64,000 nt of DNA from a virus (IMGVR_UViG_2877251553_000001:10207-74206); one strand, 5' to 3'. Positions 8,545 through 35,524 are shown, counted from the stretch's first letter. Translations and numbers: made by a program. Notes: generated by a model not told the origin, from the sequence alone.

Positions 8545-9039
8545 ATGGATCGAGAGTTAAAAAATCTGACGCTGAATATCAGTCAACTGGCGGCACTGTC
8601 AGGTGTACATCGCCAGACTGCTGCGGCAAGGCTGCAAAATCTACCCGTTGCAGGGGGGCATGAAAGCAACCTCAAGCTTTATCGGGTGGTTGATATTGTG
8701 TCGGCATTTCTGGCATTGCCACCGCCGGTTGCAGAAGGCGAAATGGACGCGCATGAGCGCAAAGCCTGGTATCAGTCTGAACGTGAGCGTCTTAAGTTCG
8801 AACAGGAAACGGCACAACTCATTCCGGCCAGTGATGTCAGACGGGAGTTTGCCATCTGGGCAAAAGCGGTCGTGCAGGTGCTGGAGACATTACCGGATAT
8901 TCTGGAACGTGACTGCGGTCTGCAGCCTGCCGCTGTGAGCCGTGTTCAGTCCATTATTGATGATCTGCGCGATCAGATAGCCCTGCGGGTGACTGAAGCA
9001 GGTGCGGATGATGAGGAGGAATTACAGCAGGAGGAGTAA
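8545..9039 (+). CDS. Terminase small subunit
   Basis: 164-aa ORF directly upstream of and overlapping the large terminase subunit; acidic C-terminus. Confidence 0.6.
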   Translation: MDRELKNLTLNISQLAALSGVHRQTAAARLQNLPVAGGHESNLKLYRVVDIVSAFLALPPPVAEGEMDAHERKAWYQSERERLKFEQETAQLIPASDVRREFAIWAKAVVQVLETLPDILERDCGLQPAAVSRVQSIIDDLRDQIALRVTEAGADDEEELQQEE

Positions 9040-11140
9040 TGCTGAATCAGGAAACCGCAAAGGCAGCACGAACCGATTCAGGTTATATCCTTCGCGCACC
9101 GAGACGAATGCGGGTTGCTGATGCCGTTGCTCAGTATATGCGGGTGCCCATGGGGGCAGGGAACTCAGTCCCGTGGGATCCGCTGGTGGCACCGTATGTT
9201 ATTGAGCCGATGAACTGCCTGGCCTCGCGTGAATACGACGCAGTGATATTTGTTGGCCCGGCACGAACCGGCAAGACTATCGGCCTGATTGACGGCTGGG
9301 TGATTTACAACGTGATTTGCGATCCTGCTGATATGCTGATCATTCAGATGACGGAGGAAAAAGCCCGCGAACACTCCAAAAAACGACTCGCCAGAACGTT
9401 TCGCGTCAGCCCGGAAGTGGTCAGTCGCCTGAGTCCGAACAAAAATGACAACAACGTTTATGACAGAACATTCCTTGCTGGTAACTACCTGAAAATCGGC
9501 TGGCCGTCAGTCAATATCATGTCCTCATCAGATTATAAATGCGTCGCGCTGACGGATTATGACCGTTTTCCGGAAGATATTGATGGCGAGGGGATGCTTT
9601 CTCTCTTGCCTCAAAACGTACCACCACATTTATGTCCAGCGGTATGACGCTGGTGGAGAGTTCCCCCGGCAGGGATGTGAAGGATGTGAAATGGCGACGG
9701 ACTTCACCGCATGAGGCTCCACCAACCACGGGGATCCTGTCGCTCTATAACCGTGGTGATCGCCGTCGCTGGTACTGGCCCTGTCCACACTGTGGTGAGT
9801 ATTTTCAGCCCTGCGGCGATGTGGTTGCTGGTTTCCGTGATATTGCCGATCCCGTGCTGGCAAGTGAGGCGGCTTATATTCAGTGCCCTTCCTGTTCAGG
9901 ACGGATTATGCCTGAACAAAAACGTGAGCTGAACGGACGTGGGGTCTGGTTGCGGGATGGTGAATCCATCAATGCGGATGGCAGTCGTTATGGTGATCCC
10001 CGACGCTCACGTATTGCGTCATTCTGGATGGAGGGTCCGGCAGCTGCTTACCAGACACTCTCGCAACTCGTTTACAAACTGCTTACTGCAGAACAGGAAT
10101 ACGAGACAACCGGAAGTGAAGAAACACTCAAGACGGTTATCAATACCGACTGGGGATTACCTTATCTTCCCCGCGCCAGCATGGAGCAACGAAAAAGTGA
10201 ACTGCTTGAGCAGCGGGCAGAGCCAGTTCCTTCCCGCAGTGTGCCGGATGGCGTTAATTTCCTTGTGGCGACAGTGGATGTGCAGGCGGGACGTCATCGC
10301 CGTTTTGTGGTTCAGGTAACGGGCTATGGCAGCCGTGGCGAACGCTGGATTATTGATCGTTACAACATCACGCAGTCATTGCGCGGTGACAGCGACGGGG
10401 AGAGCCAGCGAATTGATCCGGCCAGCTATCCGGAAGACTGGGATGTCCTGCTGACGGATGTTTTTCATAAAAGCTGGCCGCTGGCCTCCGATCCTTCTCA
10501 ACAAATGCGACTGATGGCAATGGCGGTGGACTCCGGCGGTGAAGACGGGGTCACTGATAATGCCTATAAATTCTGGCGTCGTTGCCGTCGTGATGGCCTT
10601 GGTAAACGTATTTACCTGTTTAAGGGCGACAGCATCCGGCGCGCAAAACTGATCACTCGTACATTCCCTGATAACACCGGACGAACGGGCCGACGGGCGC
10701 AGGCCGCAGGTGATGTGCCGCTCTGGCTTCTTCAGACGGATGCACTGAAAGACCGGGTGAATAACGCGTTATGGCGTGACTCGCCAGGTCCCGGCTATGT
10801 GCATTTCCCTGACTGGCTGGGGAGCTGGTTTTACGACGAACTGACGTATGAAGAGCGGAGCAGTGACGGGAAATGGAGTAAGCCTGGTCGCGGTGCCAAC
10901 GAAGCTTTTGACCTGATGGTGTATGCCGAGGCTCTGGTCATTCTGCATGGATACGAAAAGATCCGCTGGCCGGATGCACCGGAGTGGGCGAGCCGGGAAA
11001 CCTGGCTGGAGTGTGTCCAGGACAGTACCGAACCGTCATCCTCACCGGAACCGGTATCCACGCCTGTTAAAAAACAAAAACGGAAGAAAACAGTAACTGA
11101 CGATGTTAACCCCTGGCTGACTTCCGGAGGATGGTTATGA
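9039..11140 (+). CDS. A: Terminase large subunit (lambda gpA-like); apparent frameshift near 9590
   Basis: Two overlapping ORFs (9039-9647, 9632-11140) rejoin if one G is added to the G run at 9590-9593; Walker A motif GPARTGKT. Confidence 0.8.
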
Positions 11141-11349
11141 ACCAGAATGATATCGAAGCCATGATTCAGCGTTATATGGAAGCTGAAATGGCGGTGCTGG
11201 ACGGAAAATCCGTCACCTTTAATGGTCAGCAGATGACCATGGAAAACTTATCTGAGATCCGGCAGGGACGGCAGGAGTGGGAGCGCCGCCTTGCGGCTCT
11301 GATTACACGACGACGGGGGCATCCCGGGTACCGGCTGGCGAGGTTCTGA
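11131..11349 (+). CDS. W: Head-tail joining protein, lambda gpW-like
   Basis: 72 aa, C-terminus RRRGHPGY resembles gpW; between terminase and portal. Confidence 0.6.
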   Translation: MVMNQNDIEAMIQRYMEAEMAVLDGKSVTFNGQQMTMENLSEIRQGRQEWERRLAALITRRRGHPGYRLARF

Positions 11350-32906: not shown

Positions 32907-33685
32907 TTAAAGACTCAAAATTAGGTGAGTAACGGACCGGGACATAGCTCCTTTTTTTCTTAATTCATCTGGTATTTTTTTTCCAAGATAAAGATTTGCT
33001 ATTTCAGGTGGGGCTTCTCGACCTTCAAAACCATAGCGCGAACTTTGTGTTGCCTCAAAGTCAGGATCCTCGTCCCAGTATTTCAACGAAGGGAAATTTT
33101 CACGTGTTGATTTGAGCCATTTATCAGCAATGAAAACCCCTCGAACGATCCCCCTTACAGTAGCAAGAATGATTTCTGCTTGGCTGGCGCGAGAGACATT
33201 AATGCGCCAGCTAAATCGAACCGCATCATAAAGCTCTGAATCCTTTGCACTTCTGTTAACGGATATCATTAATGCTTTATGATGAAATGTTATGGTTTCG
33301 GGCTGATATGTTGCTATCAACTCTTTGACATGCGCGGCGCCGAATTCATTGCTGCCAGCACCATTCATGATATTCGTTAACCCAGGGTAGGCATCAATAA
33401 GTGCTGCTTCAACTTCGTACGCCGTCTTTTCATCAGTCATTCCGTGTCGATGGATGACATGGATAACTTCAAGTCCTGCTAACCTTATTTCTCTAATTTG
33501 CTTTAGCTTGTTGCTCAGTAACTCGTCATCATCAGTCGCTGCCACTTCACCGCGCATATGGGCAAATACGCGGTTACCTTTGCCTTTCCCTACATAGAAG
33601 GTGCTTCCGTCCTCGGATCAATCAATCGGTATACATACCAGCCAAGGTGTTCAATTACTCCAGAAGGAAACTCAGTAATATCCAT
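32907..33685 (-). CDS. GIY-YIG nuclease-domain protein; apparent frameshift near 33597
   Basis: N-terminal region reads [13 protein letters not shown] then, after a one-base frame change, [14 protein letters not shown] (GIY-YIG pattern); remaining 216 aa uncharacterised. Confidence 0.55.
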
Positions 33686-34091
33686 TTTGCAATATCTATG
33701 AAGAATTATTTGTGAGACGTATATTAATGATCATTGCAAGGGCTCACAACCAGTAGTGTTGAGAAAACCATCGGAGAAATGAGGCTAAGCCTTTGAATTT
33801 ACATAGTACAAAAAAGATACTTTTCCTCATAATGTGAGCTAATTTTATGTTTCGTTTGATGATTGGACCGGTCTCGAAAACCGTAGACACATAGTATGCG
33901 TTAATTTATGAACAAACTACTTGTCTGCTGTTTTTCTGTCATTAGTCGTATATAGAATGATTCTCTATGCCTAACAAAGCATCACCAGTGCTAGATTACG
34001 TTGTAGTCACTGTTTAAATATCCAGATAAAACATTTCCTTCTGGGTTGAATGAGTGATAAAGTTTCACCCATTAGACCCCTTGGAGGAATT

Positions 34092-35524
34092 ATGTCTGAA
34101 TTTGAAGTGTTGGCACAGCATCTGCTGAAGGAAGCCGAGGCGGAAGAAAAGCTGCGACAGGAAAATGATAAAAAGCTTATCGAGAAAGTGCTGGAAATCT
34201 ATGATCAGAAGTATGTGGCTGAATTACTGAGAAAAGTCGGAAAAAATGAGTGGAGCCGTGAAACCATTAACCGCTGGATTAATGGCAAGTGTTTACCAAA
34301 ATCGTTGACTTCAGTAGAAGAGTCTCTTCTGCGTAAGATGCTACCAGAACCACCTGCAAACCATCCGGAATATGCTTTCCGCTTCATTGACTTATTTGCT
34401 GGAATTGGAGGGATACGGAAAGGTTTTGAGGCCATTGGAGGCCAGTGTGTTTTTACCAGTGAATGGAATAAAGATGCTGTGCGTACATACAAGGCCAACT
34501 GGTTTAACGATGAACAGGTGCATAAATTCAATCTCGATATTCGGGAAGTCACGCTGAGTGATAAAACCGATGTATTGGAAACGGATGCTTATGCATATAT
34601 TGATGAGCATGTGCCGGATCATGATGTGCTTCTTGCGGGGTTCCCGTGCCAGCCATTTAGCCTTGCTGGTGTTAGTAAGAAAAACTCACTTGGTCGTGCG
34701 CATGGTTTTGAATGTGAAGCACAAGGAACACTTTTTTTTGACGTGGCACGTATTATACGAGCAAAAAAACCGGCAATTTTTGTGCTGGAAAATGTCAAAA
34801 ATCTGAAGAGCCATGATAAGGGTAAAACTTTCAAAGTCATTATGGAGACCCTTGACGAGCTGGGCTACGAAGTTGCCGATGCTGCAGAAATGGGAAAAAA
34901 CGATCCAAAGATTATCGATGGGAAGCATTTTTTGCCTCAGCATCGTGAACGCATTGTTCTGGTCGGATTTAGACGAGATCTGAATATTCACAAGGGGTTT
35001 ACCTTGCGTGATATCAGTCGTTTTTATCCGGAACACCGCCCATCATTTGGTGAATTGCTGGAGCCTGTAGTCGACAGTAAATATATACTTACGCCAAAAC
35101 TATGGGAGTACCTTTATAACTACGCCAAAAAGCATGCAGCCAAGGGGAATGGTTTTGGCTTTGGGTTGGTCAATCCTGAGAATAAGGAAAGCATTGCACG
35201 CACACTTTCTGCCAGATATCACAAAGACGGATCAGAAATTCTTATTGATCGTGGTTGGGATATGGCAACGGGAGAGGCTGACTTTATGAATGAGAGTAAT
35301 CAGGCTCGTCGACCACGCAGGCTGACTCCCGAGAGTGCGCACGCCTTATGGGATTTGAAAAACCTGGAGGGAAACCATTCCGTATTCCGGTTTCAGATAC
35401 TCAGTCATATCGGCAGTTCGGTAACTCAGTTGTGGTGCCAGTATTTGAAGCTGTTGCCAGACTTCTGGAACCCTATATCCTCAAAGCTGTTTCTGCTGAT
35501 GCTGGTAAGACTGGGCAGCCTTGA
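34092..35524 (+). CDS. DNA cytosine-5 methyltransferase, Dcm / M.EcoRII-like; apparent frameshift near 35328
   Basis: Motifs [46 protein letters not shown] match Dcm; 477 codons once C run 35328-35330 is corrected. Confidence 0.85.

Follow-up and report, generated by a model that had tools for sequence, protein, structure and literature searches.

One-base losses across a prophage-rich stretch

The stretch considered here is a viral sequence of 64,000 nucleotides (IMGVR_UViG_2877251553_000001:10207-74206), called the window throughout, with positions counted from its first letter; our subject is a class of one-base losses in homopolymer runs that breaks the reading frames of many of its genes. 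The window matches GenBank CP026825.1 (a chromosome of 4,699,491 bp) at 100% identity and consists of parts of two related prophages together with the mobile elements lying between them. The late region of a lambdoid prophage occupies 8326-38492 and shows 99.4-99.9% identity to prophages of Escherichia coli KKa014 and IAI39. Beyond it lie a thrW-type integrase island and then a cluster of insertion sequences (IS) comprising ISSso6 (IS110 family), two IS66-family elements, two copies of IS911 and a nested IS3; the early region of a second lambdoid prophage extends from 58557 to 63691. The original prediction, made from the window alone, held that a series of phage and IS genes would each regain one continuous frame upon the addition of a single base to a run, and ascribed the pattern to under-calling in sequencing as opposed to decay.

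Each segment was aligned to its nearest accurate relatives and every indel was listed; about 52 kb were compared in this way. The sites found in and just ahead of the first prophage are given below, G5 to G4 denoting a run of five G in the relatives that has four in the window.

6095-6097, plus strand: non-coding DNA shortly before the start of the holin gene (essD); G4 to G3 relative to IAI39, KKa014 and CP026872.1
9590-9593, plus strand: terminase large subunit; G5 to G4, splitting the gene into 202 and 498 amino acids (aa)
11932-11935, plus strand: portal; G5 to G4, splitting the gene into 245 and 267 aa
14102-14106, plus strand: ClpP-protease/major-capsid fusion; G6 to G5, gene split
15175-15177, plus strand: DUF2190 head-decoration gene; G4 to G3
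24781-24784, plus strand: tail-tip protein J; G5 to G4, gene split
27022-27404, plus strand: lom; three losses, at 27022 (G4 to G3), 27225 (G4 to G3) and 27400 (G6 to G5)
27576-27578, plus strand: non-coding gap between lom and stf; G4 to G3
29911-30067, plus strand: stf; two losses relative to WY517-2, at 29911 (G4 to G3) and 30064 (G5 to G4)
32564-32573, plus strand: tfa; two losses, at 32564-32566 (C4 to C3) and 32571-32573 (G4 to G3)
32917-33612, minus strand: LEM-3-like GIY-YIG gene; three losses, at 32917 (A5 to A4), 32939 (G4 to G3) and 33611 (C3 to C2)
35328-35330, plus strand: Dcm-like methyltransferase, near its 3' end; C4 to C3

Measured against near-identical accurate relatives, all the sites listed in the original prediction exist within about 15-35 bases of where it had placed them. 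A few positions needed adjustment: the portal run lies at 11932 (predicted at 11945), that of the GIY-YIG gene at 33611 (predicted at 33597), and stf has losses at 29911 and 30064 in place of one near 30030, with tfa, the GIY-YIG gene and stf all bearing extra sites. Eleven sites lie beyond its list altogether (6095, 15175, 27576, 40266, 40317, 40666, 55475, 59396, 61816, 62132 and 62620).

We then added one base at each of 29 sites and compared the resulting frames and proteins with those of the relatives. Repair gives a single full-length frame in every named gene except stf, which is cut by an IS2 element and whose repaired frame is open as far as that insertion; the predicted restoration by one added base therefore holds everywhere but in this gene. 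Eight repaired proteins, with about 3,200 residues in all, match their counterparts at 100% identity: those of KKa014 for the terminase (700/700), portal (502/502), capsid fusion (675/675), DUF2190 (107/107), tfa (194/194), GIY-YIG (257/257) and Dcm-like (477/477) products, and that of E2863 for the DUF6387 protein of the island (293/293). The apparent frameshift in the Dcm-like gene stands 64 codons ahead of its end. Repaired J and lom each form one frame, of 1132 and 199 aa, respectively.

Over the approximately 52 kb aligned to the closest accurate relatives in E. coli, the tally comes to 33 one-base deletions and 0 lengthened runs, a local density of about 0.6 deletions per kb. All but one of these events (32/33) represent one base lost from a run of 2 to 6. 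By base, 30 of the 33 fall in G or C runs, and the remaining three affect an A5 run, a T6 run and a single A beside C4 (61816); hence, the homopolymer class that had been predicted is real, but its supposed uniformity over G, C, A and T is not. The events are spread over prophage genes, five IS copies, the integrative island and four non-coding sites (6095, 27576, 30791 in the IS2 terminal repeat, and 55475), the last of these implying no sign of selection or of gene targeting. The ratio of deletions to insertions, 29:0, has p = 4e-9, and the difference between G/C and A/T runs of at least 4 is comparably marked (Fisher p = 3e-6). As the following counts indicate, the rate of loss climbs with the length of the G/C run.

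A/T runs of at least 4: 288 runs, 1 shortened (0.35%)
G/C runs of at least 4: 138 runs, 13 shortened (9.4%)
G/C runs of length 3: 417 runs, 1 shortened (0.2%)
G/C runs of length 4: 106 runs, 8 shortened (7.5%)
G/C runs of length 5: 28 runs, 3 shortened (10.7%)
G/C runs of length 6: 4 runs, 2 shortened (50%)

An apparent strand bias, with 11 G-run as against 3 C-run events on the plus strand, was considered and rejected: the excess arises because G runs of at least 4 outnumber the equivalent C runs (108 versus 30), and the respective rates of 10% and 7% do not differ (p = 0.73).

Consensus error or mutation

The pattern is real in the record and far past chance, and it concerns the assembly and not the organism. 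Specifically, we regard it as very likely, judging from the sequence comparisons, that errors in the consensus of an unpolished long-read assembly, as opposed to mutations carried by the bacterium, account for the frameshifts. In mechanistic terms, the pulses that PacBio chemistry yields in short G or C runs would be under-called in many reads, and the consensus would then settle one base short at some of these runs (about 7% of those of four, 11% of those of five and half of those of six). Each lost base would shift the reading frame, and gene callers would therefore split the gene. Repeats probably raise the local density of errors further, with few reads mapping uniquely in polishing. Accordingly worded, the predicted intactness of most genes stands in large part: the terminase, capsid, DUF2190, J, lom, tfa, GIY-YIG, Dcm, DUF6387 and IS transposase genes are very probably intact in the organism, and the portal gene, whose site is less certain, is probably so, with stf being the one that is really cut.

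The provenance of the record is consistent with this. Three papers attribute accessions that flank it, between CP026768 and CP026878, to the PacBio Shigella genomes of Kim et al. 2018, a set described as 59 historical Shigella genomes that are PacBio-only and 'not edited with short reads'; from its place in this accession block CP026825.1 appears to belong to the same set. Yassine et al. 2022 (PMC8795385) excluded these genomes from core-genome multilocus sequence typing (cgMLST) on account of "numerous indels in the homopolymers" relative to Illumina data from the same strains, a published report of precisely this fault that speaks against decay; in the worst case for the data set, 584 cgMLST loci differ between the PacBio and Illumina versions of one strain (PMC8795385). 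No paper or supplement that we searched names CP026825 or its strain. More generally, ARAMIS (PMC8574707) found that assemblies based only on PacBio RS II data systematically delete G and C in homopolymers; its E. coli case showed 29 deletions as against 8 insertions and 25 GC as against 7 AT runs, with 37 indels per 4.6 Mb (PMC8574707).

The best placed of the wholesale alternatives is genuine pseudogenization, whereby the prophages, island and IS copies would be decaying under relaxed selection with real slippage in their G/C runs. Shigella genomes are in general rich in pseudogenes and IS, and real IS damage is present here (IS2 in stf and IS3 inside IS911). However, decay would be expected to leave a mixed spectrum of substitutions, nonsense codons and both insertions and deletions, and none was found, there being 33 deletions and 0 insertions; further, the non-coding sites are also struck. 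The proteins tell against it as well, being 100% identical after repair: the approximately 14 frameshifts in them (at least 14 by our count) are accompanied by not one amino-acid change, which is unlike decay. At the nucleotide level, the 6.4 kb from 32112 to 38492 show 0 substitutions and 6 one-base deletions relative to KKa014. For spontaneous mutation in E. coli, Lee et al. in 2012 reportedly observed about ten substitutions per indel. As a control, the accurate IAI39 and KKa014 sequences of the same prophage differ over 17.4 kb by 105 substitutions and 0 homopolymer indels.

The distribution of the shortened alleles points the same way. The four window deletions in 9039-20000 are absent from the best-matching complete E. 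coli genomes (15 matches listed); this span measures 10,966 bases in 13 of these 15 matches, 10,967 in the other 2 and 10,962 in the window. Most of the truncated products were absent from other data sets; in a collection of about 15 billion proteins, those of DUF2190, J and tfa occur only in the source assembly, the exact 1021-aa tape-measure protein likewise matched only that assembly, and the exact truncated capsid-fusion product is present only in two CP0268xx assemblies. The truncated capsid product led us to the second of these, CP026872.1, a sister assembly from the same accession block that carries the same prophage. Relative to KKa014, its copy shows 6 substitutions over 15.9 kb, along with 14 deletions of a single base, each in a G/C run of 4 to 6. 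Of those 14 deletion sites, 12 are intact in the window, and conversely the window sites at 6095, 9590 and 15175 are intact in CP026872.1, a discordance that is hard to reconcile with inherited decay. The portal and capsid sites common to the two assemblies could be read in favor of decay, but they amount to 2 of 89 eligible runs and lie within chance (p = 0.12). The terminase and Dcm truncations recur only in contigs with further homopolymer losses of their own, the portal being the exception in that its allele is found in clean contigs. Weighing all of this, together with the reality of the portal allele in other lineages to which we return below, we hold decay to be very improbable as the explanation of the frameshifts at large.

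The truncated terminase found in two Logan contigs, and the truncated Dcm found in one, were considered as proof of real mutation and rejected, these contigs bearing further homopolymer losses (at 8653 and 8559 in the terminase contigs, and at 36621 in the Dcm contig L030, where the endonuclease is broken). They look like noisy data in which the same runs have been under-called.

It was separately observed that independent, error-prone contigs from other sequencing runs (L009, L010, L016 and L030) lose a base at 9590 and 35328 just as the window does, and that three of them are also shortened at 8653, a G6 run that is intact in the window. Particular G/C runs thus seem to be under-called repeatedly across data sets.

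The portal site merits separate consideration. Its G4 allele, with an identical 245-aa product, occurs in otherwise clean Logan contigs from several sequencing runs (L014, recovered as one and the same contig from four samples, together with L015, L017 and L018), where the portal indel is the sole one relative to KKa014 in well-aligned DNA and the other head and tail genes are intact. These contigs represent at least three diverged lineages (L014/L015, L017 and L018), which suggests a genuine recurrent frameshift at the portal G tract in this prophage family. Descent of the allele together with the window sequence was considered and rejected: the carriers diverge by 1 to 2.4% from the window and the 99.9%-identical relatives of the latter have G5, from which it follows that the allele is recurrent and not co-inherited. 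For the window itself, error is much the likelier source of the 11932 call, though without certainty, because about 11% of the G/C runs of 5 are shortened here and the allele appears to be rare among the contigs of this prophage. It is unlikely, though less so than decay throughout, that a smaller part of the frameshifts is real, the one at 11932 first among them, and that the G tract is a natural hot spot of slippage by which the prophage has been recurrently inactivated and locked into the host chromosome.

A further alternative invokes a mutator history, in which a mismatch-repair-deficient ancestor gathered run-length frameshifts genome-wide. Loss of mismatch repair does raise the frequency of one-base homopolymer indels, and G:C runs are more mutable than A:T runs. 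However, transitions predominate in mutator spectra, which contain +1 as well as -1 events, whereas in the window substitutions are nearly absent and no +1 event is seen; a density of 0.6 per kb applied to the whole genome would mean about 2,900 frameshifts, incompatible with viability; and CP026825.1 and CP026872.1 show different sets of sites on nearly identical DNA. We therefore give this history even less credence than decay. Least credible of all, to the point of being negligible, is that the runs serve as contingency tracts for phase variation or as sites of programmed frameshifting: programmed frameshifting does operate in the IS3-family elements (IS2, IS911 and IS3) and in the lambda G/T tail chaperone genes, and in relatives both IS2 and IS911 are annotated with a 'programmed frameshift', but the runs at issue are short (3 to 6), scattered over unrelated genes and non-coding DNA, and away from the known slippery sites, the thousands of complete E. 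coli genomes with this prophage show, to judge by the best matches listed, the longer form of the run at all four sites of 9039-20000, and phase-variable tracts are usually longer and switch both ways, with only losses being seen here.

Several points nevertheless weigh against reading the frameshifts as consensus errors. All 33 sites were judged by sequence comparison, and none has been directly disproved as a mutation. The window is entirely mobile DNA, for which real decay is plausible in Shigella, and it has no core gene with which the error rate could be checked internally. That CP026825.1 belongs to the Kim et al. set is drawn from the accession block, and the local density of 0.6 per kb looks higher than the worst published case for that set would imply; the excess may reflect poorer polishing in repeats. 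Finally, the portal G4 is a genuine rare allele in nature, and it is common to both CP0268xx assemblies.

Insertion sequences, the island and the second prophage

Beyond the first prophage's own genes, the following sites and features were recorded.

30786-32116, plus strand: IS2 inserted in stf, about 150 bp before the end of stf, with a 5-bp target duplication; a real disruption
30791 and 31230, plus strand: losses within this IS2, C5 to C4 in the terminal inverted repeat and G4 to G3 in the body, respectively
35562-36767, minus strand: EcoRII-like endonuclease, cognate of the Dcm-like methyltransferase; intact, 402/402 identical to KKa014
40266-40668, plus strand: DUF6387 gene of the thrW-type island; three losses relative to E2863, at 40266 (C4 to C3), 40317 (G5 to G4) and 40666 (G4 to G3)
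41992-41995, plus strand: ISSso6 (IS110-family) transposase gene; C5 to C4
44318-45521, minus strand: IS66-family element; losses at 44318 (C5 to C4, tnpC) and 45519 (G4 to G3, tnpA)
46821-46824, plus strand: IS911 copy 1; C5 to C4, with C5 in copy 2 of the same window and in reference IS911 copies
55475-55479, plus strand: non-coding; T6 to T5, the sole T-run event
57479-57482, plus strand: tnpC of an ISEc22-like IS66 element; C5 to C4
59396-62624, plus strand: early region of the second lambdoid prophage; four losses, at 59396, 61816, 62132 and 62620

The losses that had been predicted in the IS2 terminal repeat (30791), in IS911 copy 1 relative to copy 2 (46821), in ISSso6 (41992) and in the IS66 elements (44318, 45519 and 57479) were all recovered, and IS911 copy 2 has no run loss at the site where copy 1 has C4. 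The extension of the pattern to IS3-family transposases was borne out for the IS2 body (31230) and IS911 copy 1, but not for the nested IS3 at 50683-51989, which shows no indel relative to the IS3 copy of IAI39, to which it is 98.5% identical. Copy 2 of IS911 (49781-52342, reverse) is itself interrupted by this IS3-family element of 1.3 kb.

The thrW-type island is in two pieces: one runs forward over 38437-41615 up to ISSso6 at about 41612, and the other, an inverted piece of about 1 kb (48759-49791) corresponding to the antirepressor region of E2863, lies about 7 kb away and adjoins IS911 copy 2. The split looks like an IS-mediated inversion or rearrangement. Real damage in the window is limited to such IS-related events, namely the IS2 in stf, the IS3 inside IS911 copy 2 and this IS-bounded rearrangement of the island.

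In the second prophage, the loss at 59396 falls in a PerC-like gene, and those at 61816 (an A lost beside C4), 62132 (G3 to G2) and 62620 (G6 to G5) fall in the DUF968 gene. The relatives used for 58557-63691 were loci reached by look-ups with the RusA and antiterminator proteins, taken with 10 kb flanks; these calls are less certain, since the identity of the relatives is only 98.3%. The early region with rusA, kilA-N and DUF968 is present twice (1-2661 and 59803-62783), in copies that are 96-97% identical and stand on either side of the IS-rich center, and such repeats may have had lower unique read coverage in polishing. Open reading frames in 1-4800, a segment outside the comparison with relatives, appear intact.

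The right end of the first prophage (32907-36773) combines the LEM-3-like GIY-YIG nuclease gene with an EcoRII-like restriction-modification pair, the latter comprising the Dcm-like methyltransferase and an endonuclease in which EcoRII-N and EcoRII-C domains are present. If the methyltransferase had really been lost while its endonuclease stayed intact, the cell would probably suffer, a point of biological consistency in favor of the error reading.

Two further differences stand apart from the one-base class. At 8205-8211, the window has G7 where IAI39 and CP026872.1 have GGGGGTGG, one T between two G runs being absent; the change is not purely one of homopolymer length, and the tally does not include it. 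At 53393, a 4-bp GTGC is absent relative to E. coli SWHEFF_68, near the edge of the alignment; it is the sole multi-base indel in the near-identical segments, and may be either real or an alignment-edge effect.

Implications and likeness to known cases

The preference for under-calling over decay in the original prediction was upheld by the identity of the proteins after repair, the deletion-only spectrum, the differences in sites from CP026872.1 and the PacBio literature. As the fault has already been published for the Kim et al. data set, its scientific interest is low: it offers nothing new on phage or Shigella biology, and its value is practical. Annotation of the record, or counts of pseudogenes, intact prophages and active IS copies drawn from it, would mislead, with 0.6 errors per kb extrapolating to about 2,900 false frameshifts per genome. 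Hence, short-read polishing is needed before such records are used for prophage-completeness calls, inventories of IS transposases, restriction-modification predictions or allele typing. Repair followed by comparison offers a simple test that separates artifact from decay: a protein that becomes identical to that of an accurate relative once its runs are repaired.

Among known cases, the closest in kind are the PacBio RS II (continuous long read) errors described by ARAMIS, which are likewise single-base, homopolymer-associated and mostly G/C deletions, in a genome of about 50% GC, affecting a minority of runs and truncating predicted proteins. The window differs from the E. coli case treated there in its far higher density of about 0.6 per kb and in the predominance of runs of 3 to 4. 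With the Kim et al. set that Yassine et al. 2022 evaluated, CP026825.1 has in common its place in the same accession block; that evaluation, however, concerned core genes and eleven named strains, whereas the window is mobile DNA only. Genuine Shigella pseudogenes also present broken phage and accessory genes beside many IS copies, with real IS insertions such as the IS2 in stf. In contrast to them, the frameshifts of the window consist of deletions only, have no accompanying substitutions, are not found in relatives and differ between CP026825.1 and CP026872.1. In 2019 (Nat Biotechnol), Watson and Warr are said to have drawn attention to the manner in which indels in long-read consensus sequences split genes and inflate pseudogene counts. 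The window is an instance of that same problem, with no difference in principle.

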